This document shows, one piece after another, positions 5,116 through 26,856 of a stretch of DNA of 64,000 bases (positions within the stretch are counted from its first letter, which is position 1; the number at the start of each line of letters is the position of its first letter). The stretch spans positions 4,412-68,411 of the forward strand of contig URLJ01000005.1 of the NCBI GenBank assembly GCA_900548675.1, written 5' to 3'. A model generated the notes under the pieces. The model worked only from the letters and a program-made list of their open reading frames with translations. It ran no database searches and was not told where the DNA came from. This stretch comes from an uncultured Mollicutes bacterium (lineage in GTDB: Bacteria; Bacillota_I; Bacilli_A; ML615J-28; CAG-313). Position numbers and translations under genes: made by a program.

Positions 5116-5687
5116 CTAATCAACCTCCTTCAAATTTATTATACTTTTTTAAATAATGTCTTAAGAGTATCATCTTTTCTTTTCCGATATTCTTTCAGCA
5201 TTTTTTCAAAAAACTACAATTTTTACCTATTATATACATATTATAACATTATTTTTTCTACAACACAAATAAAATTTTTCAAAATAACATATTTTTATAT
5301 AAAAAAACTATGATTATTTCAAAACACATCATAGTCATAATTAATTTTTTCAAAAAAAGTTACTTAGATTATTTAAAAACATTATTTATTGTTGTATATT
5401 GAATATTCCATACATTTTTCGCTTTTTCATCTATATTCGTGTATAATCTAAACTGAAATATTAAATGAACAGTTTAGATAAAAACACGATTTTTTTATTT
5501 ATGATATACTTTTATTGAAGTTATATCAGCTTCATTTAATATTTTATTATACCATATAGTTTTTTTGATTCAATCCAATCATATTCCAATTTACTCTAAG
5601 AACCTTAGAGTTTTTGTTTTTTATCCATTTTTTTAATTACTAAATTAAAAGAGGACACTTAAGTCCTCCATTAGTTTGATATATTAA

Positions 5688-7007: not shown

Positions 7008-7498
7008 AAGATAGTTTCCTCCTCGTCAGTATCATTATATTGTATAACTTATATATATTCAAGATACTATTTGAAATGATACGATTTATATCATTATATA
7101 GTTATTAGCTACATTTCAATTTTATCAAATTGTTTATATTTTTTTAGTATTTTAAATAAGAAATAATGTATTTTCGCAAACACTTTAATAAAAGTTAGTA
7201 TTTTTTCAAAATTATTTTAAATCATTGCGTTGAAGTATTTCAAATTACATTAAACATTAAAAACAGGAACCAGTTTGATTTACTGAATCCTGTTATTTAT
7301 TAAAAATTCTTATTATTTGGTATGATTCATTCTATAATTTGATTTTGCAAATGATATATAAGTTTTTATTGATATTATTAAACTTTAATACTTTATCTTT
7401 TGAATTTGATACTATACTTTTTCAATGATTAATAAAACGAATTACAACATTTTTTCAAATATGTAATTTTCTAATTAGGAAATAATAAATGAAGTTTT

Positions 7499-8098
7499 TT
7501 AGCTAATTTTAGTAAGAAGCGGTAATAAAGCTATTCCGACATCAACGCTTTTATCAAATATCCATTTACCAATATTTTTTAATTTCAACCATTTTTTCTC
7601 TTTTGTATCTTTTGATTCTAAAATCGTCTGGATGAGTTCAATTTGATTTTTTATTTCTTCTTTTTCTGCATCCGTCATTTGTAAACCATCAATTTTATTA
7701 ATAGCCTCTGAATAAATATTTCCATTATTTATAATATTATTATTCCCATAAATATTATAATTGGTCGTACTAGGGATTCTTGTATTTTCTTCAGTTGAAA
7801 AATTATTTTCACATATATCAGTAATATGCATTTCCAATACTTTAAGGTTTTTTAAAAGTATGGACTTGTCGTGAATTAATGGTTCATCGCAGTTCACATA
7901 TGTATACACATTCCTAGTTTCTGATAGTTTAAATGATGCAACAGACTTACCATTTTTAACATTACTCGATCTTTTGGTATAAAATTCTGCTATAGGCATG
8001 TATTCATCACCTATTTTATTAATAATGTTTTGGTCGCTTTCATTTTCTAGTTGTTTGATTAATTTTTGAACTTTTATTAAATTATCATTATGTAACAT
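7499..8098 (-). CDS. Hypothetical protein with C-terminal hydrophobic tail
   Basis: 199-aa ORF. No recognisable motif. Confidence 0.4.
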   Translation of the reverse strand: MLHNDNLIKVQKLIKQLENESDQNIINKIGDEYMPIAEFYTKRSSNVKNGKSVASFKLSETRNVYTYVNCDEPLIHDKSILLKNLKVLEMHITDICENNFSTEENTRIPSTTNYNIYGNNNIINNGNIYSEAINKIDGLQMTDAEKEEIKNQIELIQTILESKDTKEKKWLKLKNIGKWIFDKSVDVGIALLPLLTKIS

Positions 8099-8361
8099 TT
8101 TCTTCTCCTATTAACTTATATATAATCGTGAGTAATTCATTTCATTTTTCAAAATGTACATAAATATTATATCATAAATTAAATATTTTTAACTGAATTA
8201 ATGATTACAATGTTTTAGTTATTTAACTTTGATAATTACGTAACTATTCTTTCTAACTCTTAAGACTATAATCTATATGTTACTAAATTTAATATGACTA
8301 CAGTAATAATATTATTTCACATTGTTAGCATTTTTAAAATTGTTAAGAATTTTTTAAAAAG

Positions 8362-8396
8362 AAAAAGCTGATACTTTTTATTGTATCAGCCTATCT
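8362..8396 (-). terminator. Rho-independent terminator of the helicase operon
   Basis: GCTGATAC/GTATCAGC 8-bp stem followed by a T-run when read on the minus strand, just downstream of the helicase stop. Confidence 0.55.
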
Positions 8397-8688
8397 ACGT
8401 ATCATGTGTAAGATTAGCTATTATGATGCAATTTGCGTACACCCCTTAAAAAGTGCGTACAGTCTGGCAAAATTTATGTACACTTATTTTGCTTATCTTA
8501 ATCTCTACTTTATGCCAAATAGTTCTTTGAGTAGTGTAACGCTCTATTTATGAATTCTTTCCCATATTCAGATAATAAATCGCATAATTTCAAAAATTAA
8601 GCATTCCTCGATTTTTTTGTCTGTCGTTTAGATCAAGTATATAATAATACTTTTTTTCCTTTTCTAAATTTTTATACTCATTATATTG

Positions 8689-11418: not shown

Positions 11419-11436
11419 AATTATTACCTTTTATCT

Positions 11437-11820
11437 TTAATTGCATAGTGTGATTTGTCTCTTAACATACTTTGAAATCTTTTTTATGAGAATTGTGACT
11501 CTCTTAAACATCATACTTTCTAAAGTTTTCAGCTTGTTCCAACACTTTTTCATATACTTCGGCATTCCATTCTTATAATCAACCTCAGGCTTAGAAGTAA
11601 CAAGGATTACGCATCTTTGGTTGCCAATAACACGTTTGATTTCGACACTTATATATTGAGAAAAATCTCCATTATTAAAACCATTTAATCTAACTCTATC
11701 TATAGCATTTCCTAATTTTAATTCTTTATATTTACCAACAAACTCTGTTACAGGCACCCATCTACTAACTCCTTCGGTATTAGGTTTTACCAATTTTATA
11801 AACAATTCTACCTTAATCAT
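11437..11820 (-). CDS. Small hypothetical protein, upstream partner of the helicase
   Basis: 127-aa ORF, 18 nt upstream of and co-oriented with the helicase gene. Confidence 0.45.
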   Translation of the reverse strand: MIKVELFIKLVKPNTEGVSRWVPVTEFVGKYKELKLGNAIDRVRLNGFNNGDFSQYISVEIKRVIGNQRCVILVTSKPEVDYKNGMPKYMKKCWNKLKTLESMMFKRVTILIKKISKYVKRQITLCN

Positions 11821-12336
11821 TTTTATTAACCATCCTATAAATAAGTTAAAAACATACGAAAATTATAACACTTTTTTGAGAAAATTACAAGTAGATTGCG
11901 GAATAATGACAGAACTAAAAAAAGTTTTTATAAAAAATATAGTTTGTTCCGTAGGAATATATAAAAAGAAAAAGAGCCTCGTAAAAATGCCGTTTTGCAC
12001 TTCTACAAGGCTCTATAGTTTGTTGGCGGAAAGGATAAAGGTTCCTATCCACAAAGAAAAAAGGCTTGATAACAAATGTATCAAACCTATTGCTTCTTTA
12101 ATGTGAAAGGTAAGTTTTGTTAATACAATGCACCCTCTATAGATGAAGGTGCACCCTCTAACCCTATATTTTTAAGCATATACACAAGTGACGTGTGACT
12201 AGCGTGACAGATGTGACACTTAGGTATGATATGCATATTTTATACAACAAAAGTATTTGAAAAACAAGTTTAATACAACTTGACTTTAAACCTCTTTAGA
12301 GTGATAGATAGACACAGCTTTAAGGAGGTTTTTATT

Positions 12337-12516
12337 ATGCGTCATAAACAAATTGAAGGCGAAATAAAATATAGATTTGCATGTCTTCTTCTAAATCAAA
12401 TGCTTAAAGATAAATTTATAACAAAAGATGAACTTATATTATTTAAGAAAAAGCTCATTAAAAAATATAAACCTATAATTAGTGTGTTGGAGGAAATCGA
12501 TGAAAAAGATAATTAA
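12337..12516 (+). CDS. Small hypothetical protein preceding the recombinase remnant
   Basis: AAGGAGG RBS before ATG (MRHKQIEGEIKY...). About 60 aa. Confidence 0.4.
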   Translation: MRHKQIEGEIKYRFACLLLNQMLKDKFITKDELILFKKKLIKKYKPIISVLEEIDEKDN

Positions 12517-13945
12517 AGAAATTACTCCAATAAAGAAAAAGGTTGAAAATGCACCTACTAAAAAGTGAGTCGCAGCATATGCAAGAGTATCAACTGAACA
12601 AGATGAGCAGCTTCATTCTTTACAGGTTCAAAGAGATTATTATGAAAATTATATTAAATCTAATCCTGACTGGGAACTCGTTAATATTTATTATGATGAA
12701 GGAATTACAGGTACTTCTTTAAAACGTAGAAAATGATTTAATCAAATGATAACAGATGCTCTTGATGGGAAAATAGATGTTATATTAGTTAAGTCAGTAT
12801 CTAGATTCGCTAGAAATACAATTGATGCTCTTCAAACAACAAGAGATTTAAAATTAAAAGGCGTACCTGTATTTTTTGAAAAAGAAAACATTGATAGTAT
12901 GGATCCTAAAGGTGAATTCATGCTTACACTATTCTGTTCTTTCGCTCAGGAAGAATCCAAATCAATATCTGATAACATTAAATAGTCAGTTAGAAATGGA
13001 TATAAACATGGGAAATTCACAATGCATACTGAGCATTTATTAGGTTTTAAGAAAACAGCAGCAGGTAAAATTATAATTGATAAGGAACAGGCAAAACTTG
13101 TTAAAATGATTTATAAACTTTTCTTAGAAGGTTTAAATAATCATCAATTACAAGTATACCTAAAAAACAATAATATCTTAACACCTCTAGGTTCTAAAAA
13201 ATGGACTTATGCAGTCATTAATTCAATTCTTACTAATGAAAAATATTGTGGAGATGCAATACTTCAAAAGAAATTCTCAATTGATGTAGTACTTCATACT
13301 TTAAAAAAGAATGAAGGTGAATTACCTCAATATAGAATATATAATAATCATCCTGCAATTATACCAAAGCCAACATGGGAATATGTTCAAGAATTATATT
13401 CAATTAAATATAATGATAACTCATATCCACTAAGTAATAAAATTGAATGTGGATTATGTCATAAATTTTATCAGCCTAGAAGAAATGATAGAAAAAAGGA
13501 TTATGGCAAAGTTCTTCTATATTGGGTTTGCAATTCAAGATACAAAAGAAAATGTAAGGGAATACTTATTCATGATGAACAAATGATTGAAGCATCTACT
13601 TTAGCATTTGAAAATTTATATAGTTCTTATAAAGATGAAATTATAAATGATATAAGATTAATTGCATCTAAAACAATAACCACTAAAACCAAACAAAAAG
13701 AATTTAGTAACAAGTTATCTTCTATCTATCCCTTAAATAAGGATATTATAGATTACTTTACTAAATTCTTAATTAGAAAAATATATGTTGTTGATGATGA
13801 CTATCTTCTTTATGAATTTATTGACGATACCTTATATCGTTATGAACTAGGTACATGGTCTATAAAAGAAAACAGAAAGATTAATCGTAAACGCAGAGAG
13901 TTTAGAAATAAAGACTATTGGGGAAAGAAACCTGAAGTAGATTAA
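12503..13945 (+). pseudogene. Large serine recombinase (resolvase/invertase N-domain plus recombinase domain), disrupted by at least 3 stops/frameshifts
   Basis: Frames give MKKIIKEITPIKKK...TKK*, VAAYARVSTEQDEQLHSLQVQRDYYENYI...GITGTSLKRRK*, ...IDVILVKSVSRFARNTIDALQTTRDLKLKGVPVFFEKENIDS...*, then the 307-aa ORF 13022-13945 (recombinase/zinc-ribbon-like: CGLCHKFYQP...C). The serine-recombinase catalytic region (AYARVS) is split across frames. Confidence 0.7.
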
Positions 13946-14253
13946 TCCTCAATAATTTCATAAGCAACTCTAGAGCCTTTTACTCTTACTGCATGGAATC
14001 TTCTATTATTTGCTTTCCAATGAGGAAACTTATCAGCTTTTTCTTCATTAGTATCACGATAGCAAATTATAATATTATCTAAAACATCAGCTCCACCTTT
14101 TGATAATGGTCTAATGTGATCTAATGTAGGATGATAATTACTATTAGGATTTCCACAAGCAGATTTTTTCATTAATCTACCAGCATAGTCCTTTACATCT
14201 TCTTTTTTGCCATAATAATGATTCCAGACATCGATTGTATTGTACTTTGACAT
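13942..14253 (-). CDS. Small HNH endonuclease-family protein, partner of the viperin-like gene
   Basis: HNH motif YHPTLDHIRPLSKGGADVLDNIIICYRDTNEEKADKF. Likely start MSKYNT at 14253 with AGGAGG 7 nt upstream; the ORF track extends to 14313. Confidence 0.65.
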   Translation of the reverse strand: MSKYNTIDVWNHYYGKKEDVKDYAGRLMKKSACGNPNSNYHPTLDHIRPLSKGGADVLDNIIICYRDTNEEKADKFPHWKANNRRFHAVRVKGSRVAYEIIED

Positions 14254-14278
14254 TTTGAATACCTCCTTTCTAAAGTGA

Positions 14279-15103
14279 TTAAATGTATCTTTTAATATAA
14301 TTGGCATAATCAATATTTAATAGATTAATTGCTTCTTCTATATCATAATCAAATATTGAAATATTGCTTATATGGGCATTATTTGTTGAAATATTACCTT
14401 GTGAGTCAATAATTATATATGAGTTTTTCATCTCATCAGAACTTTCAAATATATGGTCAAATTTGATTTTTGATAAGAAGGCTTCTGCTTCTTCTTTATT
14501 AACCATATTATTTTTATTTTTTAGGTCATTATCATCACAATGCATCTGAAGAATTTTATATCTATCTGGTTTAATTTCATTTATAAACGAATTAAAATCC
14601 TCATCAATATTTAACTTAGAAAGGCAAGTATTAATTTTTAATTTAATACCTGCTTTTTTAATGCTATTACAGATGTGAATTAATTGTTCTTTAGATAAAG
14701 TATTAGCTTTAAAACATCTTCCAATTAAAACATTTGTATCATAATCTAAAGAATCTACACTAATTCCAATTGTACTTATTTGATTTTTGTATCTTTCAAT
14801 AAATGAATCATCCAAATAATAACCATTAGTAATAATAGATACTTCAATACCTTTTGATGCAATATAATCGATTAATCTATCAATATTTCTAGACATTAAG
14901 GGCTCCCCTCCTGCGAGATTGATTCTGCCCTTAATTTCATTATCGTTAAAATATTTATAAATTTTATCTACTGCAACCTTTAGTTCATCAAATGACAACT
15001 CACAATTTTCTTTTTTAACAAAGCAATGCTTACAATGAAAATTACAGAAATCTGTAAAATGAAGATTTATACAAGAATACATTTCCATCACCTCGGGCTT
15101 CAT
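14279..15103 (-). CDS. Prokaryotic viperin (pVip)-like radical SAM enzyme
   Basis: CNFHCKHC (CxxxCxxC) inside NLHFTDFCNFHCKHCF (compare viperin NYHFTRQCNYKCGFCF). GGEP SAM motif, NVLIGR, KINTCLSKLN, RYKILQMH. The C-terminal MKNSYIIID matches the viperin-specific tail (MKDSYLILD). Confidence 0.7.
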   Translation of the reverse strand: MKPEVMEMYSCINLHFTDFCNFHCKHCFVKKENCELSFDELKVAVDKIYKYFNDNEIKGRINLAGGEPLMSRNIDRLIDYIASKGIEVSIITNGYYLDDSFIERYKNQISTIGISVDSLDYDTNVLIGRCFKANTLSKEQLIHICNSIKKAGIKLKINTCLSKLNIDEDFNSFINEIKPDRYKILQMHCDDNDLKNKNNMVNKEEAEAFLSKIKFDHIFESSDEMKNSYIIIDSQGNISTNNAHISNISIFDYDIEEAINLLNIDYANYIKRYI

Positions 15104-15471: not shown

Positions 15472-16137
15472 TCATTGGAATCTTATACCAAAATGTTTTA
15501 ATGTTTCAACGACTGATTCATTTAACAATTGATAGGATTTCTTCTTATTTGGTTCAACATCATCTTTATGATCATGACGTTTCTTTTTATATACTTTTCG
15601 AAGATACTCCCACATTTCAGGGCCTTCAATAAGACTTAATCTTTCACGATATTTATTCATTTCTTTTCTTTTAGCCCATTCATAGTCTTCGTTATTAGCA
15701 TTATTAGTATTTTTCTTATTATAAAGAATATAGAAATTACCGTCTTCATCATATGTTGTTATAATGATATCAAAGCCATATCCTTTGTTAATATTTTTTG
15801 TAGTTAAGGCTTGAGTGCTATCCTCACAGAAACTGAATCCTTTAGGTTTAAACTTATCAAATGTAGTTCTAAATATATCTTTAAATTTTTTACAGTCTCT
15901 ATTCCAATTATAATTATTCGGAATAGATTGCATAACAATTTGGAAATCTAAATCAAAGAAATTCTCATTGCATTTTCTAATTACCATATTTCTACTACCA
16001 CTACCAATTGGAGAGTGTGAAAAAGTAATTTTATAATTCTTTTTTATATATTTTTGAACACTATTAATCCAATTAATAAATGTATCTCTTGGAATCTCTA
16101 GTTCCTTTTTCTTTACATAATCACACATAAAAATCAA
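15472..16137 (-). CDS. Pol-beta-superfamily nucleotidyltransferase (minimal nucleotidyltransferase / SMODS-like)
   Basis: HSPIGSGSRNMVIRKCNENFFDLDFQIV (GS...DxD) plus a downstream acidic GFDIIITTYDEDG. Overlaps the upstream HEPN gene by 4 nt. Confidence 0.55.
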   Translation of the reverse strand: MIFMCDYVKKKELEIPRDTFINWINSVQKYIKKNYKITFSHSPIGSGSRNMVIRKCNENFFDLDFQIVMQSIPNNYNWNRDCKKFKDIFRTTFDKFKPKGFSFCEDSTQALTTKNINKGYGFDIIITTYDEDGNFYILYNKKNTNNANNEDYEWAKRKEMNKYRERLSLIEGPEMWEYLRKVYKKKRHDHKDDVEPNKKKSYQLLNESVVETLKHFGIRFQ

Positions 16138-16820
16138 TCCTCCGTATATAGCAAGAACTTATAATAAGCACTTGCTATATTTTCTTTTGTCTTTTGATTA
16201 GGTACTTTAAGATTTTTGATACACCCATCTTTATAATCAGATGGCAGCATTTCAACTAAAGCACCTATTCCTTTTAGTGTTTCTTCAACCGTCGATTCAA
16301 AATTATAATCAAATAATAAAGGTGAGTGATGCATTACACTATTTCTTAGATTTATTGTTAAATCTAATTTGCTAGTATCATAAGTTTGTGAATCATAATC
16401 TTTTATAAAAGACACTAAATCTCCAAAGTTTAAAGCAAACTTTTTATAAAAGTCTGTTATTTCATCCGTTGGATTAGTCTTTCTAATACACTTTGGCAGT
16501 CCTTTAAAATAATGATATTCTGGTTTCTTTAATTCAGCTTCAGGATCGAAATCAAATCTTAGTAAAATATCATTTCTGATATATTCTTCCAAAGTACCTA
16601 AATATTTAAATAGAACATCTTTTATTGCCTTATCGAGGATAACAAATGAATTGACATCAGCAAAAATAACATTAGAATCAACCTTACTCAATGCTTCAAA
16701 TATAATTCTATATTGCTGAACACCTCGAATTTTAGAATACTTCTCAAATGTGCTTTTATCATCATTATTAAGTTTTTCAATAAATTCTTTAAATCCCATA
16801 TTCTTCCTCCGTTTTAGCAA
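16134..16820 (-). CDS. Abi2 (AbiD/AbiF-like) HEPN-domain protein
   Basis: R-x4-H HEPN motif in LRNSVMHHSPLL. ~228 aa, typical of the Abi_2 family. Translationally coupled to the nucleotidyltransferase gene. Confidence 0.5.
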   Translation of the reverse strand: MLKRRKNMGFKEFIEKLNNDDKSTFEKYSKIRGVQQYRIIFEALSKVDSNVIFADVNSFVILDKAIKDVLFKYLGTLEEYIRNDILLRFDFDPEAELKKPEYHYFKGLPKCIRKTNPTDEITDFYKKFALNFGDLVSFIKDYDSQTYDTSKLDLTINLRNSVMHHSPLLFDYNFESTVEETLKGIGALVEMLPSDYKDGCIKNLKVPNQKTKENIASAYYKFLLYTED

Positions 16821-16873: not shown

Positions 16874-17749
16874 TTAGTCTTCATCAGAAATACTAGAATA
16901 ATCAATTTTTTTAATACTTCCATCTTTATTGAAGTGATAGAACAATTTATCATCGATCTTTAAAACTGCTTTTGTGTCAGATTTTATAATACTTGTTGAA
17001 GAATGAGGTTCAGTTTTGATTGCGCCATAAGAAACACCTTCAATTCTATCGAGTTCTAATTTTGTAATAAAACTTTTAAAAACATCATACTCATTGTTTA
17101 CGTATTTTCTTTTTCCGGTTACAAATGGACCTTTGTAATTAATTAAATCCTCAATTACTTTTCCATAATTATCAAATAATTCATAATAACCCAACACATA
17201 TTCTGGTCTTAAAATATTGCCTCTATCATCATTGGTAAAGCCATCAATACAATCAGCTTTAACATTTCCTTTTAAATATACTCCTTTTATTTTAATATTT
17301 GGTCTTATGGATGACTCTGTGATTGTAATTTTAAATGTTTTATTAGATACATCACATAAATCTAATGGAGCAATATCATAATAAATTAATATCTTTACTG
17401 CTCCACTTTGAAATCCTAAATTTGAAGCAAAACAGGGAATAATTTTCCAATCATTATGTTTTTCTTTAATATCTCTTATAACAGTAACAAATGAGCATGC
17501 TTCTGTTTTTTCAACAGGACCATTATGTGATTTACACTCACACAACAAATGGTAATCAGGATTGTTTGAAGATAAAAGATGAATATCTATTTGATGTTTT
17601 GCTCCTGATATACCTTCTATTTTATCAGTGTGGTCATCTGAAACCTTATCGAATATTATTCCCCTATCCCAGCTTATTTCTTTCAACAGTAAAATACTTT
17701 CAGAAAAATCTTCATATTTTTTTCCTTTTTCTTGATTTTTAGTCGGCAT
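16874..17749 (-). CDS. Mrr-like PD-(D/E)xK restriction-endonuclease-fold protein with unknown C-terminal domain
   Basis: N-terminal region GISGAKHQIDIHLL...LLCECKSH fits the Mrr_cat D...ExK catalytic core. Confidence 0.5.
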   Translation of the reverse strand: MPTKNQEKGKKYEDFSESILLLKEISWDRGIIFDKVSDDHTDKIEGISGAKHQIDIHLLSSNNPDYHLLCECKSHNGPVEKTEACSFVTVIRDIKEKHNDWKIIPCFASNLGFQSGAVKILIYYDIAPLDLCDVSNKTFKITITESSIRPNIKIKGVYLKGNVKADCIDGFTNDDRGNILRPEYVLGYYELFDNYGKVIEDLINYKGPFVTGKRKYVNNEYDVFKSFITKLELDRIEGVSYGAIKTEPHSSTSIIKSDTKAVLKIDDKLFYHFNKDGSIKKIDYSSISDED

Positions 17750-17795: not shown

Positions 17796-18335
17796 TTATT
17801 TCAAATCCATTGTTATAACAACATCTTCATCACCAAGTAAATCTATTAATTCACTTTTGGATAAATTGATATGTCCTAATTTTGTATAAGACCATGTATT
17901 AGAGTCATAGAATAATACTATTTGATTTGATGAGTATAAAACTATATCTCCTGGAGATGTAGTTAAACTAGCATCACTTGATGCAATACATTTACCAAGT
18001 GAACCTACCTGTTCAAAGTTACCATACATACTCATATTTATAGTTAGTCCATCTTTAGCAAGTTCTTTTAAAGCTTTAACTGAATCATTATCCAGCCAAT
18101 TAACATCTACTATAGTATTACCAATTTTTAGTTCAATTGCCTTATTCGCATATGGGGCTTCTTCTTTTGGTTCAATAGTTGTAGGATTTGAATCAGTTGA
18201 TGAACATGTAGTAAATGAAGGTGTTGTTGGAGTATCAGGCAGTGTTGTAACTTTGTTGTTAGAGCAAGAGGAAGTAATTAAAATTAGAATGATAAAAAGA
18301 AATAGTAATGGTGTTTTTCTAATATTGATTCTCAT
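17796..18335 (-). CDS. Lipoprotein (cyclophilin-like fold family)
   Basis: Signal peptide with lipobox-like LITSSC. Overlaps the upstream ORF by 4 nt. Confidence 0.5.
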   Translation of the reverse strand: MRINIRKTPLLFLFIILILITSSCSNNKVTTLPDTPTTPSFTTCSSTDSNPTTIEPKEEAPYANKAIELKIGNTIVDVNWLDNDSVKALKELAKDGLTINMSMYGNFEQVGSLGKCIASSDASLTTSPGDIVLYSSNQIVLFYDSNTWSYTKLGHINLSKSELIDLLGDEDVVITMDLK

Positions 18336-18799
18336 AATAAATCTTTTTGCTCATCTATCCAACTCAGCCATTTTATAACAGTACTTGCTCTTCTTTTGCA
18401 TACCTCATAATTATCTATTTTATAGAGAATACTTATCATTTGAGATATTTCATCAATTGTTGGATTTGAATTATAATAATAACGCATGAAAAACACTTCG
18501 CCAAAAACAGGCATTGATACAATTAGTTGAGATAGTTTTAAAACCCTTGTATCATTTGAAACACTTTTAAGTTCTTTTGCGACCTCTGTGAACTGTCTTT
18601 TTAATATTAAACCTAAAAATTCACATGCGCTCAAATAATAAGATATTTGTCTATCGGTTCCTAAACTGAGCAACTCTTTAAGGTAGTCGTTGTCTTTTAA
18701 TTTATCCTCATTAACTTCTAATAATTTGATGATCTTTTCAAAATCATTTGCTTGTGGAAATGGAACACTATTTCTTTCTTCCATAAATAAGCACCTCAT
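18332..18799 (-). CDS. Hypothetical protein, translationally coupled to the Dam methyltransferase
   Basis: 155-aa ORF. Overlaps the methyltransferase 3' end by 32 nt. Confidence 0.4.
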   Translation of the reverse strand: MRCLFMEERNSVPFPQANDFEKIIKLLEVNEDKLKDNDYLKELLSLGTDRQISYYLSACEFLGLILKRQFTEVAKELKSVSNDTRVLKLSQLIVSMPVFGEVFFMRYYYNSNPTIDEISQMISILYKIDNYEVCKRRASTVIKWLSWIDEQKDLL

Positions 18800-19616
18800 C
18801 TACTTTTTTTCTCTCTTTCTTACTATTAATGTTTCTATTTGCTTTTATAGTTTTAGTAGAATATACTATTTCATAATTATCAGATTCATTAAATAATTCT
18901 CTAACAAACTTAGTATCATTATTTGATATTAAAACAAAGCAACCCTTTGATATTAATCTATCACACGTTTTTTTCAAGCGGATTAAATCATCATGAGTAA
19001 AGCCTTCTTTAACATAATTAACAAAACCGGAAATTTCATAATCATATGGTGGGTCAAAATATACCCAATCTCCAGTTTTAGCAGTCTTTGTAGTTTCAAC
19101 AAAATCTTCTGATAATATTTTTATCTTATTTGTGTTCAAATAATTAGAGATTTCTATTAAATTGTTTTCATCACATATTAAAGGATTAACATATCTTCCA
19201 ATAGGAGTATTAAAATAACCATTTTTATTTACTCTGTATAAACCATTATAGCAAGTTCTATTTAGATAAATTGTTCTAGCTGCTTTTTCTACATCTGTCA
19301 TTGATCCATATAAGTATGGATCTCTGTCTAAGCTTCTAATATAATAGTAATAATCTTTGCAATGTCTACTTGCATGCTCTTTTAGCTTGGTAATTAAATC
19401 GTTGACATTATCTTTTATAACCATATATGCGTTGATGATTTCCGAATTTAAATCATTTATTATGCAATAATTATGTTTTAATTCAAAAAATACTGAGCCT
19501 CCACCTAAAAACGGTTCAAAATACCTATTATCACCAATTTTATCATTGGTTACAAATTCTTTGATATATGGTATCAACTGTCTTTTACCACCGGCCCATT
19601 TTAAAAATGGTTTCAT
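18768..19616 (-). CDS. Dam-family (D12 class) N6-adenine DNA methyltransferase
   Basis: KWAGGKRQL N-terminal motif and DPPY catalytic motif. Confidence 0.85.
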   Translation of the reverse strand: MKPFLKWAGGKRQLIPYIKEFVTNDKIGDNRYFEPFLGGGSVFFELKHNYCIINDLNSEIINAYMVIKDNVNDLITKLKEHASRHCKDYYYYIRSLDRDPYLYGSMTDVEKAARTIYLNRTCYNGLYRVNKNGYFNTPIGRYVNPLICDENNLIEISNYLNTNKIKILSEDFVETTKTAKTGDWVYFDPPYDYEISGFVNYVKEGFTHDDLIRLKKTCDRLISKGCFVLISNNDTKFVRELFNESDNYEIVYSTKTIKANRNINSKKERKKVDEVLIYGRKK

Positions 19617-19627
19617 ACGCTCACTCC

Positions 19628-22135
19628 TTATTCGAATTCCATTTCATCATTTCCACCAAAAATGAAATTGCCCTTTCTTATAGATTTTTCCATAAGTTCC
19701 TCTTTTTTCTTTAACGCTTTATAGATATCATAATCTTTGGATTTTTTCATTTCATCATCATAATAATTCAAATATATATAATAATTTGTTTTATCTGAAT
19801 CTTTTAGGCCAAGTCTATGAATTCTATCTCTAGATTGAAGGTATTGGTATAAGTTATAATTTAATTCAAGATAATGTGCATCATGGCACGCTTTATGTAA
19901 AGATACAGATTCCGCTAATGTTGCAGGATTTGTTACCAAAATTTGCAATGTACCATAGTTAAACTCATCTATTATTTTTTCTCTTTCAGATTGTTCTGTA
20001 TCTCCATAAATCGTTTTTACATAATATCCTTTATCTTTTAAAACCTTATAGATCACATTGATCGTGTCTACGAAGTTGCACCACACGATTGACTTTCTAT
20101 TGTTTTTTTCCAATATAGACAAAAACTTACATATCTTACTGGTATAATAAATTTCTCCATCTATATCTGTATTTTTTTCATTAAATTCAATACTTTGATT
20201 ACATTTAAATGGAACACAACCTATTTCTACTAATTTAATTGTGCTTTCAAACGAATTCATCTTTTTTGAAATAATTTGATTATATAGTTCTCTTTCATAA
20301 CTGTTTGTTTGAACTTGAATTAAATTATCATGTTCTGGGAGAGGTACGTTCAAATCTTTTTTATCTACTCTCACAAAATATGGATATAAAATATGGTTTA
20401 AATCAGAGTTCTGTAATCCAGTCTTTCTATATCTTGAATCATCAGATTTCAAAGTTGATTCAAACATTTGAAAATATGATTGTGCATAATCATCATGTAA
20501 TAGAGACATCATATTAAATAGATCTATATAGCCGTTTGGCAACGGGGTACCTGTCAACGCCATTCGATATCTAGTTTTATAAGCTATTTCTTTAAGACAT
20601 GCATATTTCAAACTGTCTATTTTTTTTATTCTATGAATCTCATCAAAAACAATCATTGTCTTTGAATCAACCAACTTTAGTAGTTCATTTTTCACTTTTG
20701 TAATAAGCTCATAATTCACTATAATAAGCCTTGATGTAGAGTAGTCGTGTAGCAACACATCGCTTTTTTCACTAATGCTATCGTTATTAATTAAACATAA
20801 TGGTGCATGATTATCGGACTCAAACGAAACCGCATTATATTCATCTTTCCAAGACTTAGCACAATTGACTGGACCAATAACAAGCAATTTATCTACATAA
20901 TTTTGATTTAGACTGCATTCATTAGCCAAATATTCAAATGCCCCAAGAACTGTTGCGGTTTTTCCACTTCCAGGAACAGAAAAGTTAAGTGATTTTTCCA
21001 TCTTTACCAAATGGATTGCTGACTGTATCTGACTATCTTTAAGCGGACGTTTAATTAAAGAATTAATACCAGCTTTCAATGATGCAAAATCAGAAGTTGA
21101 CGTATAATCAGTTTTCTTTATTTCAGTTCCTTTTACGGATAATTCATCATAATTTCTATAATGCAAATCAAAATAATCTTTTGCTTTCTTTGTTAAGTAG
21201 AAAGAAATACTATTGTTGTTACATAGTTTTTCAATTTTAAGCTTAAAATCCATCAATTCAGTTATACGTTTGATGTTTTTAAGTTTAAAGCATTTTTCTT
21301 CTTTACTTAAAAAATTAGAGGTTGAAAACTCACCAATATTTTTATAATTAAGCAAAGGTATCATATCGATGTTTGATGTTAAAATTACTTCTCCAAATTC
21401 ATTAAAATCAAATCTGATATAGTTAGGATTTTTAATGTATTGTTTAATTTCTTCATAATCAATTTTTTCTATCATTTTGGTAATAATAGGGTCTGGTAAA
21501 TCAACAGTTATAACATCATCCTTCTCATTATTCCAAATATTATCAAACAGATTATTGAGCTCATTTATGCTGTTTAATTCTCTTTTGCTTGGATTATCCC
21601 AGTCGATAGTAACTTGAAAAGCCTCATCATTAATTCCTGCCGCTGCTTCTGTGAAATTAGGCGAACCAATGTAAACTAGATTATGTATTCCATCTGATAT
21701 AATTCCAAACTTATCATGAACAATACCCGAAATTTTATATACCAATTTTACATCTAACTTTCCAACCGCAATTAAATAAGAAAATAAGTTAACATCATCT
21801 TGCTCACAAAGCTCGTTAATTCTTTCAACAATAATTGTTTTAGATAGTGCTGTTGTTAAAGAACTTTTTTCAGAATACCCTTTATTAATTTGCTTAATTG
21901 TTTCAGAATCTATATCTTCTGACAAAATAAGTTGCATATACCCGTCATTTTTTATAAATTCAGATATTCCTTTTTTTAGATACTTAAAAATTCCAACCGA
22001 AAAATAAGCTGTAATTCTCTTATATAGATTGGCATTCAACAATGCTTTTGAATAAAAGTCTTCAACATCTTTCTGGTTAAAATAAATAGTATTAAAATTA
22101 ATTTTTGACAAATCTTTATTCATTTTCGTTTTCAA
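19628..22135 (-). CDS. PLD-family (HKD) nuclease fused to an SF2 (SNF2/ResIII-like) helicase
   Basis: HKD motif HDKFGIISDGIHNLVYIGSPNFTEAA. Walker A NFSVPGSGKTAT, DExH MIVFDEIHRIK, a C-terminal helicase domain with QSRDRIHRLG. Confidence 0.8.
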   Translation of the reverse strand: MKTKMNKDLSKINFNTIYFNQKDVEDFYSKALLNANLYKRITAYFSVGIFKYLKKGISEFIKNDGYMQLILSEDIDSETIKQINKGYSEKSSLTTALSKTIIVERINELCEQDDVNLFSYLIAVGKLDVKLVYKISGIVHDKFGIISDGIHNLVYIGSPNFTEAAAGINDEAFQVTIDWDNPSKRELNSINELNNLFDNIWNNEKDDVITVDLPDPIITKMIEKIDYEEIKQYIKNPNYIRFDFNEFGEVILTSNIDMIPLLNYKNIGEFSTSNFLSKEEKCFKLKNIKRITELMDFKLKIEKLCNNNSISFYLTKKAKDYFDLHYRNYDELSVKGTEIKKTDYTSTSDFASLKAGINSLIKRPLKDSQIQSAIHLVKMEKSLNFSVPGSGKTATVLGAFEYLANECSLNQNYVDKLLVIGPVNCAKSWKDEYNAVSFESDNHAPLCLINNDSISEKSDVLLHDYSTSRLIIVNYELITKVKNELLKLVDSKTMIVFDEIHRIKKIDSLKYACLKEIAYKTRYRMALTGTPLPNGYIDLFNMMSLLHDDYAQSYFQMFESTLKSDDSRYRKTGLQNSDLNHILYPYFVRVDKKDLNVPLPEHDNLIQVQTNSYERELYNQIISKKMNSFESTIKLVEIGCVPFKCNQSIEFNEKNTDIDGEIYYTSKICKFLSILEKNNRKSIVWCNFVDTINVIYKVLKDKGYYVKTIYGDTEQSEREKIIDEFNYGTLQILVTNPATLAESVSLHKACHDAHYLELNYNLYQYLQSRDRIHRLGLKDSDKTNYYIYLNYYDDEMKKSKDYDIYKALKKKEELMEKSIRKGNFIFGGNDEMEFE

Positions 22136-23408
22136 TTTGTAACTTAAGCGTTCTTACCTTGTTTTCTATTTCTGTTAATGCATTTTTTATCTCTTCCAAT
22201 TTTTGATTTGCTATAGTGTTTGATGCATTGATCAAAGGTTTAACATTAACATTATCAAGGCTTTTTAATGCATTTTTACATTCTTTAAGAGGAATATCTA
22301 TTTGGTTCTTTGCAACTTGCTTTGAAACAACTTTTTCATAGTTTTCTTTGTCCTCAGTTGCTTCATCTGAATTTCTTAATTCTTTAATCGATTCATTAAA
22401 ATCATCTATATCAGTTGAATCTTCGATGATTGTTTGAATCTTGTCTCCAATTGTTTCTTTATGCTCATCAATTAGTTTTTTAGTTTCAGCTGAATCCTTG
22501 AAAACTTTCTTAATTAAACCATCTCTTAAATTTTGGGTAATTAAAGCAACATCTAAAGTTAATAAATAATCAAAAAATAGATGTTTTCTTTCTTGCTTTT
22601 CTAATTCAGTCAGATTTTTACCATCGTTCATAAAATATGTTACAAGCGGTTCAAGAGGCCAGTAAATTTTCATATCTTCAGCAATTTGATACTCACCACT
22701 TTTTCCTATGTAATCCAAGAATTCATCAACCAATTTACATGTTTTGCATATCTTACTTACATCACCTGCGGTAGTTCCATTACCTAATAGTTCAGCAATT
22801 GATGTATAATCAAAGCTATTTTCTTTTTCTATTAACCAATATATGCTCATATTTTTGTTAATAACATTGTATCCAACCTTCTCATCTGCACCAAATTGTA
22901 CTCTTAATTCATATTCTTTTAGCAACTGCCTTGTAATCTGCTTGCCATCTACTTTAATTATTGCAGCTAAAAAATATGCGAATCTTTCGTCACTTGGAAA
23001 TTCTCTATGTAAACGTCTAATACAAGTAAATCTTCTATTTCCGTCTACAACTGTTCCATCGTCTAGTACAACCCCAGGTTCTATCTGCCCAAACTTTTCA
23101 ATATCTCTTTTTGTAGAAAGATTCCTTTCTTCGTTAGTAGACCATATTAAATTTTCAACTTCATCATTATACTTTTTTGGATCAATGTTCTTTAGGGTTG
23201 CAAGGTTTGTGTGCTCTTCGTTTTCAAATCTTTTAGCCTCCATGAACATTCTTCCATTCGTTGGATTATACACTAGGATATCAACAGGAATTTTATACAC
23301 ATCATATTCTTGGGAACTATTTTTTAAAACTATAGTTTTTTGCTTAGCTGTACGTTTTATTCCCCACTCTTGATAATTATCATTTACATTTAAATTAAGA
23401 ATCTCCAT
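22116..23408 (-). CDS. DUF262 / ParB-like nuclease-NTPase domain protein with coiled-coil C-terminus
   Basis: FGQIEPGVVLDDGTVVDGNRRFTCIRRL matches the DUF262/ParB DGQQR-type motif. The C-terminal region is helical, coiled-coil-like. Confidence 0.65.
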   Translation of the reverse strand: MEILNLNVNDNYQEWGIKRTAKQKTIVLKNSSQEYDVYKIPVDILVYNPTNGRMFMEAKRFENEEHTNLATLKNIDPKKYNDEVENLIWSTNEERNLSTKRDIEKFGQIEPGVVLDDGTVVDGNRRFTCIRRLHREFPSDERFAYFLAAIIKVDGKQITRQLLKEYELRVQFGADEKVGYNVINKNMSIYWLIEKENSFDYTSIAELLGNGTTAGDVSKICKTCKLVDEFLDYIGKSGEYQIAEDMKIYWPLEPLVTYFMNDGKNLTELEKQERKHLFFDYLLTLDVALITQNLRDGLIKKVFKDSAETKKLIDEHKETIGDKIQTIIEDSTDIDDFNESIKELRNSDEATEDKENYEKVVSKQVAKNQIDIPLKECKNALKSLDNVNVKPLINASNTIANQKLEEIKNALTEIENKVRTLKLQIENENE

Positions 23409-25842
23409 TTAAAATCTCCTCCATTTCCTTTTCATAATATTCTTTTGTTAAATATATTTTTTCCGAAGACTTCGGACAATAATAACCCATTTCAGACAAT
23501 TCAGAGTTACTAAATTCTTTCTTTATTTTATATTCATCCATCATTTTTTCTTTTAAATCTATTAATGTTAGTGAACCATATTCATTAAGAATGTCATCCA
23601 ACAATATCTTCATAGATAGTTCTGATTTAGAAAAAATAATTGTTCCCAATGAATTAAGATAATTTACACTTCTAATTGTCATAACCAAGTATGATACTAT
23701 TGCTTTCGTATCAAATGAATATAACAAGTCTTTATATTCACTGTTAGTATCTAATACTTTTTTAAACTCATATGAATCTAAATAATCGTCGATAGTATAT
23801 ATCCCATTATTATCAAGATTATCTTCAATATCTTTTTTTAAATTCTTAACAACACACGTTTGTTCTCTTTTAACTACATTTAAATAATTATTATCAGATA
23901 TTTTTACTACCAGGCATTCATCGACTAGATCAAACATCTTGTAGTAAAAGTATTCTTTGTTAGATATTTTAGAAAGTTCATTTTCGCTTAAAATATAATC
24001 TAGATCTAATAATTCATTTTGAACCGCTTCCAACCTATTGTTAAATAAATTCGAATAAATTGCCGTATTAGTTTTTATATAACCTATCTTTTTTAGGTTG
24101 TTAGAATTTAATAATAGTTCAACTTTTTTCGTGTCTGAGCCATATCTGATTTCTAGCTTGTCTCGCAAATAATTGTATCCAATACATTTATGTTCATTCA
24201 AGTCTTGGCAAAGTCGTTCATAATCTTCTTTTGGTATCTCATCATCTAAAGATATCAGACCGGTCGAATTTTTATATCTATTTATTACATCACAAAAATT
24301 TGCTAAAACAGAGGCTTCTTTTAATCCCGTTACATCACGTATGTGAGAAAGATAATCTTCAACAGTACAAGGTAGTTCCATATCCAAAATCATATTTTCT
24401 ATGAATGCTTCTTTGTCTACTCCTAGCGATACTATAACTGGATTTCTTACAAATTCTATTTTTCTACCATATTTTGGGCCAAATAATCTTTTCATCAATG
24501 CAAAAAGTTCAAATTCATCATTGATAAAATTTTTATTACATAATTCCTTGTTATTATCATAAAAAAATGAAACCGACCCATAGCCATAAAAATTATCTAG
24601 ATACTTATCCATAGCTTCTATGAAATCAAACGACAAAGAATCTTCTTTATAAATCAAGAATTTTCTTCCTGTAACAGAAATAAATAATCTTTGGTGTTCG
24701 ATTTTTCTAGTTTTAATTTTAATATCATCAATGTTCTTTCCTATGCAAAGCTCTTCACTATAAATATTTAATTTTGATAAAAACTTGTTATAATCATCCG
24801 CAATATCATCAACACAAAAACTATGAAGAGAATTACTAATTACATATTTTTTAAATAGCGTAATAAAATCAAAACTTACTAATTCATTTCCAATAATTAT
24901 AAGTTTGTGTTTTCTTAATACTTTTTTGCCAAGATCACTATCAAATAAGTTTAGATCATTAATATAGTCAATTGAATTCTTTAATGGTTTTATTTCGTAT
25001 TTTAAGAAGATATATTCTATTAAGACATAATCAGTTAACCCTACAAGGGCGAATTCTTCTTTTTCAAAATCATAAATGCTCAAGAATTTATAATATTTAA
25101 TTTCATTATAAAAAATAGGATACGAGCTTATTCTTTTCTTTATTATTTGCCTAACTCTTTCTCTAGTTATAGACATTTCTTGAGCTATAGATTCCAGCGT
25201 TGCTCCTCGGCATTTTTTTAATACCAATTCATCCCTCGGATCGCTTGATTTTAATAAATAATCACCGATCTGCTCTTTTCTAATTTTATAGCCATCAAAC
25301 GTATTACTTATCTTATTTTCAGCAATTAATTCATCTATTATTGAATCAAATTCATATACACTCACTAAAGGATATTTATTAAGTATTTTTTCTTTTAGTA
25401 CGTTATTCAAAATAGGTTCATTTTGCTTGATTTGATTTAATATTTCAGTTTTAGGACTAATCTTTATTACAGAAGATAATTCATTAATTGCAAATAATAT
25501 TTTATCGTATGATCCCTTTTGTAATTTTATCTTCTCAGAAAATTCTTCAAATTTAGAAGATAGTAAATCGCAAGTATCATAATTTTCTTTTATTTTTTCA
25601 ATTATAAATATATTGATGTCAAAGAATAGCAAACAATATATAGAATAGTAATTTGATTGCATCAAGTATAGATCATTGATTATATTCTCTGCTGTTGGTG
25701 TTTTTCCTAAAACATTGTATATATCATCTTTTTCGATAATTTTATCTTCTATTACTGACAAAATTCTCAATAAAGTCCTACTTGAGTGTCCTTTCTCAAT
25801 CAAGTTAAGTAACTTTATGTTTCGTAGTTTTATTTCATCCAT
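23395..25842 (-). CDS. Large hypothetical protein (815 aa) with internal sigma-70 region-4-like HTH
   Basis: GATLESIAQEMSITRERVRQIIKKR resembles the sigma-70 region 4 HTH. The rest is unrecognisable. Overlaps the DUF262 gene by 14 nt. Confidence 0.5.
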   Translation of the reverse strand: MDEIKLRNIKLLNLIEKGHSSRTLLRILSVIEDKIIEKDDIYNVLGKTPTAENIINDLYLMQSNYYSIYCLLFFDINIFIIEKIKENYDTCDLLSSKFEEFSEKIKLQKGSYDKILFAINELSSVIKISPKTEILNQIKQNEPILNNVLKEKILNKYPLVSVYEFDSIIDELIAENKISNTFDGYKIRKEQIGDYLLKSSDPRDELVLKKCRGATLESIAQEMSITRERVRQIIKKRISSYPIFYNEIKYYKFLSIYDFEKEEFALVGLTDYVLIEYIFLKYEIKPLKNSIDYINDLNLFDSDLGKKVLRKHKLIIIGNELVSFDFITLFKKYVISNSLHSFCVDDIADDYNKFLSKLNIYSEELCIGKNIDDIKIKTRKIEHQRLFISVTGRKFLIYKEDSLSFDFIEAMDKYLDNFYGYGSVSFFYDNNKELCNKNFINDEFELFALMKRLFGPKYGRKIEFVRNPVIVSLGVDKEAFIENMILDMELPCTVEDYLSHIRDVTGLKEASVLANFCDVINRYKNSTGLISLDDEIPKEDYERLCQDLNEHKCIGYNYLRDKLEIRYGSDTKKVELLLNSNNLKKIGYIKTNTAIYSNLFNNRLEAVQNELLDLDYILSENELSKISNKEYFYYKMFDLVDECLVVKISDNNYLNVVKREQTCVVKNLKKDIEDNLDNNGIYTIDDYLDSYEFKKVLDTNSEYKDLLYSFDTKAIVSYLVMTIRSVNYLNSLGTIIFSKSELSMKILLDDILNEYGSLTLIDLKEKMMDEYKIKKEFSNSELSEMGYYCPKSSEKIYLTKEYYEKEMEEILNGDS

Positions 25843-25845
25843 AAG

Positions 25846-26046
25846 TTACTCCACCTCAATATTAATGTTCTCTTTTTCAAAATAATATTTTAATAATCTC
25901 TTTATTTTCATTGTAGGTTCATGAGAACCAGCTTCCCACCTATTAACAGTTGCAAAACTAACATTAAAAAGAGCAGCAAATTCTGCTTGAGTTAAACACA
26001 TTCTTAATCTTAATTTCTTAATTGCTTCACTATATTTCATAGTCAA
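25846..26046 (-). CDS. Small XRE-family HTH regulator at the head of the operon
   Basis: LTQAEFAALFNVSFATVNRWEAGSHEP. Stop is 4 nt from the 815-aa gene start. A TATAAT -10 box and GAGGG RBS lie upstream. Confidence 0.75.
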   Translation of the reverse strand: MTMKYSEAIKKLRLRMCLTQAEFAALFNVSFATVNRWEAGSHEPTMKIKRLLKYYFEKENINIEVE

Positions 26047-26443
26047 CCCTCACAAACGGAAAAATATATAATAATTATAACACTTTTATATAAAAATTGC
26101 TAGTAAGCAGCTGATAATTCAATATAATTTTTCATTTTTTCTCAAATTAATAAAATATAAATCGCTCTGCAAACCGATGAGGCACAAATTATAACCATCA
26201 AATTTTTATATTAATTGTCTCTAAGCAAATAAGTACGCCTTGTCATTGATGCCTTTAACCACATTGAGAAGCGTCTTTCATTGATGTAATTTTAATCAAT
26301 TTATTGGAACTTTTCTTTTCAAATATGTGCTAGCGAGACTTGAACCCTATACCTATAAATGTATCTATTGATGTTGCTTATGCTCCTATAGGTAAAGTTA
26401 CATCAATATTTTCATAAATATTAATTGAAAATACCTATTTTCA

Positions 26444-26550
26444 AAATGCAACCCCCTCTAAATTTTGCTCTTTGAAAATGCAACCCCTTCTTTTTTGGCA
26501 TAAAAAAATGCAACCCCTAGCGTTTTGAACCTTTAGAATTGCAACCCCAT
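26444..26550. repeat. Four direct repeats of AA(A/T)TGCAACCCC at 30-32 bp spacing (iteron-like)
   Basis: Copies begin near 26446, 26478, 26508 and 26538. Confidence 0.7.
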
Positions 26551-26702
26551 AAATTAATGATTTGATTTATGCTATTAAAAATGATGTTAAAAATAAGGCA
26601 AATTTCTTATTGGTGGGACTTGTACTCTGGTGATTTTATCTTTTTTTACCCTAAAAACAAAAAAATTGTGACAGATTTCTCGTATCACAATTCTAGTTCT
26701 TT

Positions 26703-26779
26703 TATGGGGCGAATGAAGGGATTCGAACCCTCGAGTGACGGAGCCACAATCCGCTGTGTTAACCACTTCACCACATTCG
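26703..26779 (-). tRNA. tRNA-His (GTG)
   Basis: Cloverleaf with anticodon loop TTGTGGC, TTCGAAT T-loop, 8-bp acceptor stem including G-1:C73, encoded CCA. Confidence 0.85.
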
Positions 26780-26780
26780 C

Positions 26781-26856
26781 CATGGCAGGGGATGCAAGAG
26801 TCGAACTCGCATTGACGGTTTTGGAGACCGGTGTACTACCATTGTACGAATCCCCT
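26781..26856 (-). tRNA. tRNA-Trp (CCA)
   Basis: AGGGGAT acceptor, anticodon loop CTCCAAA, TTCGACT T-loop, encoded CCA. The CCA anticodon argues against UGA=Trp recoding. Confidence 0.85.

Follow-up and report, generated by a model that had tools for sequence, protein, structure and literature searches.

A probable AbiR-family cassette with its own Dam-type methylase beside tRNA genes in an uncultured gut bacterium

The stretch of DNA analyzed here (the window: 64,000 nt of contig URLJ01000005.1, from an uncultured Mollicutes bacterium) carries a compact operon directly behind two tRNA genes, and the identity of that operon is the subject of this report; all operon coordinates are window positions. 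The operon is best read as a six-gene cassette of the AbiR family, in which an XRE-family regulator, three proteins resembling AbiRa, AbiRb, and AbiRc, and the cassette's own Dam/DUF7226 pair would make up a methylation-guarded, ATP-driven nuclease-translocase. We put the probability of this reading at roughly two in three. The core was filed under AbiR because it shares with that system the same triad of proteins, the same order, and the same methylase and Sau3AI-type neighborhood. An earlier note on this DNA, made from the sequence alone, had described a seven-gene operon that fits no named defense system; that description gave way when the three large genes were found to match AbiRa, AbiRb, and AbiRc by description and in order.

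AbiR of Lactococcus lactis pKR223 reportedly goes back to Twomey (2000) and Yang (2006). It consists of three genes, and a complex of the three products has been predicted (PMC13064643). AbiRi (AbiRa) is sigma70-factor-like, AbiRii (AbiRb) is ParB-like and was superposed on PDB 5K5D, and AbiRiii (AbiRc) joins an N-terminal domain like that of ATP-dependent restriction endonucleases to a C-terminal SNF2-type ATPase (PMC13064643). The system is anti-phage, interfering with phage DNA replication as an early block; it was first mapped to two loci split by the LlaKR2I restriction-modification (RM) genes, requires the LlaKR2I methylase, and is toxic without it (PMC13064643). According to a 2026 review of lactococcal abortive infection (Abi) systems, its mode of action is still unclear (PMC13064643). 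DefenseFinder tracks the system as AbiRa, AbiRb, and AbiRc. The window presents the components in the AbiR order, a sigma70-like large protein followed by a ParB-like protein and a nuclease-SNF2 protein, and PDB 5k5d is common to the AbiRb superposition in the review and to the fold matches obtained here.

According to the list of open reading frames (ORFs) and their translations, six tightly packed ORFs on the minus strand span 26046 to 18332. Read 5' to 3', the XRE and 815-aa genes are separated by 3 nt, the next two junctions overlap by 14 nt and 20 nt, 11 nt separate the helicase gene from Dam, and Dam and DUF7226 overlap by 32 nt. The resulting cassette of 7.7 kb comprises the regulator, the triad, the Dam-type methylase, and the DUF7226 gene. 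The co-orientation and tight packing claimed for a seven-gene operon therefore stand, and the count does not: the seventh gene, identified by domain scan as a Cyclophilin_like2 lipoprotein gene (17796-18335; 4-nt overlap with the DUF7226 stop), lies outside position 18332, where that operon was said to end, and is not conserved with the rest. It was present only in same-species contigs (L001-L003) and absent from every other related cassette; between strains it was 92% identical, while the six operon proteins were 97-100% identical in the same comparison and the operon genes 99-100%. Because the lipoprotein gene is not conserved with the others beyond the species, and because identity drops at its junction with DUF7226, it lies outside the unit and marks the right-hand boundary of what is a mobile element.

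The gene arrangement is far beyond chance: at least 10 distinct loci, with unrelated flanks, repeat the five- or six-gene cassette; the expectation that these genes recur together elsewhere was thereby borne out by neighborhood comparison. The triad-Dam-DUF7226 cassette was found with unrelated flanks in L005, L011-L018, L091, and L093, and its order was kept, with 11-nt gaps or overlaps, down to 24-37% identity to the window (24% for the largest protein). At L005, L012, and L093/L094, the large protein typically shared 47-48% identity with its window counterpart, DUF7226 53-56%, Dam 58-60%, and the helicase 63-64%; the ParB-like protein, at 74-78%, was the most conserved component of the cassette. 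The 815-aa protein evolves fastest in this clade, being 48% identical where the ParB-like protein is 77% identical.

Beyond this clade, a word-indexed search returned 22 matches for the 815-aa family and 176 for the 430-aa ParB-like family, often on the same contigs. In the species-level scan (one genome per species), 428 genomes encoded a relative of the ParB-like protein; the hosts were Bacillota, Bacteroidota, Spirochaetota, Fusobacteriota, Actinomycetota, one alphaproteobacterium, Gastranaerophilales, and Methanomassiliicoccales archaea. Eighty loci were fetched for gene-order analysis. The complete triad (large protein, ParB-like protein, and SNF2 helicase, in that order) occurred in 38 of them, the ParB-like protein and helicase only in 13, and a second arrangement (long ParB-like protein, large protein, HIRAN protein) in another 13. 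The triad was also carried by 52 Enterococcus plasmids, where it is annotated as 'sigma factor-like HTH DNA-binding protein', 'hypothetical protein', and 'DEAD/DEAH box helicase'; cluster names were generic. Window proteins aligned with the Enterococcus/Brochothrix triads at 5e-19 and 3e-86 (values in this form are E-values).

The second arrangement, for which no description was found in the literature, places a ParB-like protein of about 580 aa directly before an AbiRa-like large protein and a HIRAN protein (L007/L008, 299-13743; L022, L029, L034, L036, L037, L044, L049, L057, L062, L076, L078, L082, and L085). At L007/L008, the ParB-like and large proteins are separated by BrxL and a double-AAA ATPase. 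Two other ParB-like homologues of about 580 aa (P0126 and P0128) carry PF18731.

The triads are linked to enzymes acting at GATC. The two nearest genes on each side were scanned for 41 complete triads in other genomes, 123 proteins in total; C5 DNA methylases (12), D12 Dam (7), DUF7226 (7), and MutH/Sau3AI-like nucleases (7) were the most frequent families. In a Staphylococcus locus (L061), a genuine Sau3AI (2.6e-250 to 4pxg) directly follows the triad and is itself followed by its C5 methylase. At L026 the large protein carries a complete Sau3AI-like enzyme as an N-terminal fusion (1.7e-69), and at L030, L042, and L051 the C-terminal ~260 residues of the AbiRa-like family are found joined to a MutH-like nuclease. 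By these fusions and this adjacency, the nuclease is therefore a swappable module physically tied to the scaffold. The enzymes that triads recruit are GATC enzymes: the nuclease and methylase modules are interchangeable but center on this site. LlaKR2I, Sau3AI, and MutH are related, and all cut GATC (PMC4471560). In the window itself, GATC is the most depleted 4-mer palindrome (observed/expected, O/E, 0.52). A literature search for the combination of ParB, SNF2, and MutH returned nothing.

The AbiRa-like protein (815 aa; 23395-25842) is the least tractable of the three by sequence. Its sole sequence-detectable domain is a sigma-70 region-4 helix-turn-helix (HTH) at residues 211-236 (Sigma70_r4, 4.2e-6), as the earlier note had recognized; RefSeq names the large protein 'sigma factor-like HTH DNA-binding protein'. 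When profiles of the 815-aa and 430-aa proteins were compared with solved structures by sequence, only sigma region 4 and coiled-coil noise were returned. The AlphaFold model (mean predicted local distance difference test, pLDDT, 87.7) is built of helical modules and about seven helix/beta-hairpin units: an N-terminal helical module (residues 1 to about 155), then the sigma HTH, then an array of about seven winged-helix domains. Its fold matches were tandem winged-helix proteins (UFL1, SelB, and Pol III C34), and neither sequence nor fold searches found an enzyme domain in it. A profile-profile comparison (hhalign) with distant family members aligned residues 155-815, from the sigma HTH to the C-terminus, at E 3.7e-44. 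The N-terminal ~150 residues are the variable module of the family; in other phyla, this module consists of one to three domains like the RNA polymerase (RNAP) alpha C-terminal domain (alpha-CTD). On the strength of the model, the protein would serve as a scaffold.

The AbiRb-like protein (430 aa; 22116-23408) had no Pfam, NCBIfam, or PADLOC match at E<=0.01. Its model (pLDDT 90.7) shows a ParB fold followed by a long C-terminal helical/coiled-coil region, and the best solved fold matches were ParB-CTP complexes (6t1f, 7bnr), KorB (8qa9), and the pNOB8 ParB N-domain (5k5d); the Foldseek probability against ParB-CTP structures was 1.00. Across 26 homologues the motif GVVLxDGxxxDGNRR is conserved, and D117, G118, D122, G123, N124, R125, R126, E167, and Q171 are invariant in the family. 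The protein thus has both the ParB N-terminal fold and the arginine-rich nucleotide-binding loop of the ParB/Srx superfamily. The earlier note had called it a DUF262 protein of the DGQQR type. That reading is wrong because the motif is DGNRR and the fold matches ParB; the Pfam search returned no match to DUF262 (PF03235, the GmrSD N-terminal family), and the analogy drawn to GmrSD, SspE, and BrxU rested on a motif that is not present. One homologue carries PF18763.

The ParB-like protein also occurs with other partners. In Exiguobacterium (L096, a plasmid, 4707-15083; L020, a chromosome), ParA-CopG-ParA genes immediately precede the ParB-like/HKD-SNF2 pair and a protein of 1117-1501 aa follows it; there is no AbiRa-like protein upstream of the pair. 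On the Lactococcus lactis plasmid pIBB109_AgSa_3 (L097, 4002-12016), the order is Mod, type III Res, ParB-like protein, and SNF2 helicase; there is no AbiRa-like protein, and a 967-aa protein encoded there is not AbiRa-like by profile. This suggests that the ParB-like/SNF2 pair is a portable core docking onto different RM modules.

The AbiRc-like protein (835 aa; 19628-22135, or 831 aa if translation begins at the ATG at 22123) matched SNF2-rel_dom (2.5e-29), Helicase_C (3.5e-14), and PLDc_2 (1.7e-5), in agreement with the previous description of an HKD, or phospholipase D (PLD), nuclease fused to an SNF2 helicase. The HxK..D..GSxN motif at residue 140 is kept in every long homologue, bacterial and archaeal, and a profile of the N-terminal 250 residues matched the PLD nucleases NucT and MitoPLD. 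The helicase motifs GSGKT, DEIH, TGTP, and QSRDRIHRLG are intact, and the motor is closest to CHD1L and Rad54-type SNF2 enzymes. The best PADLOC match was PbeA (1.7e-56; a second value was 3e-54). We predict from these features that the HKD-SNF2 protein is the effector, a double-stranded DNA translocase and nuclease. Among the helicases of the 38 complete triads, the HKD domain is present in 23 and absent in 15. In two loci (L005, 13714-16207, and L011) the HKD-SNF2 protein is split into a PLD ORF (~460 aa) and an SNF2 ORF (~384 aa), which would be explained by a frameshift or pseudogene, or else by a two-gene form that occurs naturally.

The methylase (282 aa; 18768-19616) is a Dam-class N6-adenine enzyme, as had been proposed: it matched TIGR00571 at 1.8e-73 (247 bits, against a cut-off of 115) and PF02086 at 6.3e-57. 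Its best solved relative, aligned over the full length, is M.DpnII-1 (DpnM, the GATC methylase of DpnII; 2dpm; 2.8e-69), and the FLGGG and DPPY motifs are present. Profile, motifs, and similarity to a GATC-specific enzyme place it in the D12 class with DpnM; it is probably GATC-specific and would provide self-protection. The following gene (18332-18799; 150-155 aa), previously left as an anonymous 155-aa protein, matches DUF7226 (PF23871, 8.7e-20). It overlaps the Dam gene by 17-32 nt and always lies behind Dam in the clade. A profile search of 1.84 billion representatives returned 1200 relatives, many of them about 425 aa long with the domain at the C-terminus; Pfam scans identified the ~425-aa proteins as fusions of D12 Dam with DUF7226 (P0258, P0260, and P0265) or as DUF6996-DUF6997-DUF7226 proteins. 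The latter family is the source of the PADLOC match to REase_II PDLC03513. Because the domain is elsewhere the C-terminus of D12 Dam methylases, the DUF7226 protein appears to be a detached C-terminal module and a putative accessory subunit of the methylase. A literature search for DUF7226 returned nothing.

At the other end of the cassette, the XRE gene (25846-26040) matched HTH_3 (2.3e-8), so that the regulator proposed for the head of the operon was recovered. The product is 64-66 aa long; the ORF list begins it at a TTG (26046), and the ATG at 26040, which has a GAGGG ribosome-binding site and yields 64 aa, is more likely the start. We infer that XRE is the controller of the operon. The gene was in the same position in L001, L012, L013, and L093 and was not detected in all members of the clade. 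Upstream lies a conserved leader of about 660 bp (26047-26704, minus strand), which begins exactly at the 3' end of tRNA-His. The tRNA-His and tRNA-Trp genes at 26705-26856 were the only features found in the Rfam scan. Between the tRNA and the XRE gene, the leader contains GGGGTTGCAWTTT in four direct copies spaced at about 30 nt (26443-26545); three exact copies were found where 0.08 were expected. Operators, iterons, and recombinase arm sites are possible roles for these repeats. A likely extended -10 promoter, gtgTTATAAT, was located by eye only at about 26070-26080; the consensus promoter and terminator scan was uninformative in DNA of 27% GC.

In another strain (L001), the leader and operon are about 99% identical (leader at 6674-7368, with five copies of the repeat) and start exactly at the 3' end of tRNA-Gly, in an Asp-Arg-Pro-Gly cluster. 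The same leader-operon unit thus follows tRNA-His and tRNA-Gly, and therefore one cassette sits directly behind two different tRNA genes. No integrase was adjacent to the cassette, and a search for another copy of the tRNA 3' end, which would mark the far end of the island, found none. The operon does stand in a defense island beside tRNAs, as the earlier note held, directly after tRNA-His/Trp and with defense genes nearby.

A model for the AbiR-family cassette can be assembled from these parts. Dam/DUF7226 would methylate GATC sites of the host. The AbiRa-like scaffold, the nucleotide-binding ParB-like AbiRb, and the HKD-SNF2 AbiRc would form one complex, as is predicted only for lactococcal AbiR; this complex would engage un- or hemi-methylated GATC DNA, such as incoming or fast-replicating phage DNA. 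The SNF2 motor would then translocate on the DNA and the HKD nuclease would cut it, stopping phage DNA replication. XRE would set expression such that the toxic triad is not made without methylation. We infer, in particular, the GATC specificity here, the component that reads methylation, the nucleotide-binding role of the ParB-like protein, and the cleavage target (phage versus self). MutH-type nucleases recognize hemimethylated GATC. Because they do so, and because AbiR behaves as an Abi system, an attractive version of the model would have the system respond to newly replicated, under-methylated DNA, which would build up once the methylase can no longer keep pace with phage replication. The previous view of the operon as one functional unit with a modification-based self/non-self logic (Dam with an ATP-dependent HKD-SNF2 protein) is supported by the conserved synteny and by the methylase requirement and toxicity of AbiR (PMC13064643).

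Several points weigh against filing this cassette under AbiR with such a mechanism. The likeness to AbiR is one of architecture, gene order, and context, the pKR223 proteins having been compared by description with no alignment. A PADLOC run on the operon proteins had been recommended; it did return domain matches, and across PADLOC-DB 2.0, NCBIfam 20, and Pfam the two key proteins went unnamed and no system-level assignment was made. The sole Lactococcus plasmid match (L097) has a different partner set. The window variant is without a MutH-like domain, and no reader of methylation was recognized in it; the GATC specificity of its Dam is deduced from similarity alone. AbiR is classed as abortive infection, not as restriction-modification, which argues against simple restriction of unmodified DNA. 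Finally, in about half of the complete triads the two nearest genes per side include no methylase, and about 15 of 38 have a helicase without an HKD domain, so that neither the methylation dependence nor the nuclease arrangement is universal.

The alternative that survives best makes the triad a self-directed toxin checked only by GATC methylation. Infection would lower methylation, either through replication outrunning the methylase or through phage interference with S-adenosylmethionine or the methylase; host and phage DNA would both be degraded and the cell would die ahead of progeny formation, and post-segregational killing would stabilize the cassette. Historically, AbiR was grouped with the Abi systems, and it proves toxic when its methylase is missing (PMC13064643); the cassette is mobile, being identical after two different tRNA genes and common on enterococcal plasmids. 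However, the review table lists the fate of AbiR cells after infection as unknown (PMC13064643), the HKD-SNF2 fusions of related systems are usually interpreted as effectors of restriction (PMC10853773, PMC12839542), and the sequence does not separate self-targeting from phage-targeting. We consider this alternative unlikely, if worth keeping in view.

A more speculative reading, which we regard as rather improbable, would make the AbiR family a distinct and widespread class of GATC-methylation surveillance systems. A ParB-like clamp, gated by nucleotide, and an SNF2 motor would patrol the DNA and, where replication outruns methylation, license an exchangeable nuclease of the HKD, Sau3AI/MutH-like, or type III Res kind; the sigma region 4 and alpha-CTD copies of AbiRa may be decoys that sense RNA-polymerase-hijacking phage proteins. 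Were this true, the Dam/DUF7226 form in the window would be a self-contained version for dissecting a mechanism that has gone unsolved for 25 years.

We give little credence to fortuitous juxtaposition, in which an AbiR-like triad would merely stand beside an independent orphan Dam-DUF7226 or a type II RM remnant, with no coupling between them. Defense islands do pack unrelated systems together, DUF7226 is also found on the separate putative restriction enzyme family DUF6996-DUF6997, and many triads are without a neighboring methylase. Against this stand the triad-Dam-DUF7226 order, kept among unrelated flanks in at least 10 loci to 24-37% identity; the drop in identity, which places the end of the cassette after DUF7226 and not after the helicase; and the dependence of the type system, AbiR, on a methylase (PMC13064643). 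Very improbable, too, is a truly unnamed system whose resemblance to AbiR is convergent domain content. The absence of any name from PADLOC, NCBIfam, and Pfam, the comparison with pKR223 AbiR by description without alignment, and the lack of a Lactococcus AbiR-type locus among the plasmids would fit it, but three of three unusual architectures match AbiR in the same order, a methylase link and a GATC RM neighborhood like those of AbiR were recovered independently from genomes, and the family includes Lactobacillales plasmids. A non-defense role, in which a sigma-like factor would act with a ParB and a RapA-like SNF2 ATPase to partition plasmids or chromosomes or to control transcription, could draw on the RefSeq name of the large protein and on the Exiguobacterium plasmids that place the ParB-like/SNF2 pair behind ParA genes, and can be dismissed given that sigma region 4 is the only part of a sigma factor present, that the triad stands in a defense island and is linked and fused to nucleases and methylases, and that AbiR has a published anti-phage phenotype (PMC13064643).

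If the operon is indeed an AbiR-family cassette, what is new is the configuration with an in-operon Dam, DUF7226, and XRE, which was not found in the literature searched; as far as that literature shows, the breadth of the family, the fusions to GATC enzymes, and the domain anatomy of the AbiRa-like scaffold are new as well. The main value of the locus and its relatives is that they give a concrete, testable model for AbiR. The family extends far more widely than lactococci, to archaea, enterococcal plasmids, and gut Bacilli, and two domains of unknown function, DUF7226 and the C-terminal module of AbiRa, have been assigned a context. A single 7.7-kb cassette is also a handy unit for cloning, methylome, and structural study.

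The rest of the island lies downstream of the cassette and includes genes for an Abi_2-like protein, a prokaryotic viperin, a truncated serine recombinase, an IceA-like fragment, and a PDC-S53-type helicase; upstream of the tRNAs is an ordinary ABC transporter. A 291-aa protein (16874-17749) had no match in any library scanned. The stretches 14279-15103 and 15472-16820 take in the viperin (PADLOC pVip, 5.8e-68), the Abi_2-like protein, and a 221-aa protein with a weak oligonucleotide-cyclase match, the viperin lying beside the other two. On the opposite strand, the serine-recombinase fragment (13022-13945) has Recombinase and Zn_ribbon_recom domains with no Resolvase catalytic domain; it may be what is left of an element with which part of the island arrived. 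The superfamily 1 helicase (909 aa; 8689-11418) matched the PADLOC candidate PDC-S53 end to end (8.5e-274) and is followed by the IceA fragment (NlaIII-like, CATG) at 11437-11820. Of the 4-mer palindromes in the window, only GATC is more depleted than CATG (O/E 0.56).

Compared with known systems, the cassette shares individual parts with many. Like PbeABCD, or the CxC-ABC ATPase-DndE systems (PMC6459918, PMC10853773), it has an HKD-SF2/SNF2 fusion, which those systems pair with methylases or phosphorothioation; however, the partners of the window helicase are a multi-HTH protein and a ParB-like protein, and the operon contains no CxC-type ABC ATPase (PbeC), DndE-like PbeD, or small PbeB (definition in PMC10853773). 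The joining of a methylase with a helicase or translocase and with a PLD nuclease recalls Type-2 BREX-related (DUF499) systems, DISARM, and NgoAVII/CglI, but no DUF499, DUF3780, DrmA, DrmB (DUF1998), or B3-like R protein is encoded in the operon. PbeABCD, DISARM, and the DUF499 systems were rejected because their defining partners are absent. The C-terminal helicase lobe gave weak matches to DrmD and DrmA (1e-10 to 1e-6), with no DUF1998 protein in the operon. Dpd, Zorya, Hma, and Mza were raised by helicase or HTH matches and were set aside, their defining partners being missing.

At the level of single proteins, members of the large-protein family share RNAP alpha-CTD-like, sigma region-4, and winged-helix modules with the C-terminal half of PglW of BREX (around residues 800-930) and with MzaA, in local PADLOC matches. 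The similarity to PglW, BrxA, and MzaA is local and confined to domains, whereas the window operon has no kinase, NERD, or STAND module and no adjacent BREX core genes. The ParB-like protein resembles the ParB/KorB/Noc CTPase clamps and the DndB/DpdB-type ParB proteins in its ParB/Srx N-terminal fold, arginine-rich nucleotide pocket, and C-terminal helical, dimerization-like region; unlike them, it matches no ParBc, DndB, or DpdB profile and has no centromere or ParA partner. The methylase is like that of DpnII (DpnM), and other members of the family carry genuine Sau3AI-type R and M genes, as in Sau3AI/LlaKR2I; the window operon differs in having no DpnII- or Sau3AI-type endonuclease, and here the HKD-SNF2 protein is predicted to do the cutting, at the expense of ATP.

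AbiR itself remains the closest counterpart. The pKR223 system depends on the C5 methylase of a neighboring Sau3AI-type RM system, whereas the window operon encodes its own DpnM-like N6-adenine Dam with DUF7226, is without a Sau3AI/MutH-like nuclease, is headed by an XRE gene, and belongs to an uncultured, low-GC, Bacilli/Acholeplasmatales-like gut bacterium. In common, the two have a trio of genes whose order and unusual architectures agree, accompanied by a methylase of a GATC enzyme family, in a mobile or defense context.

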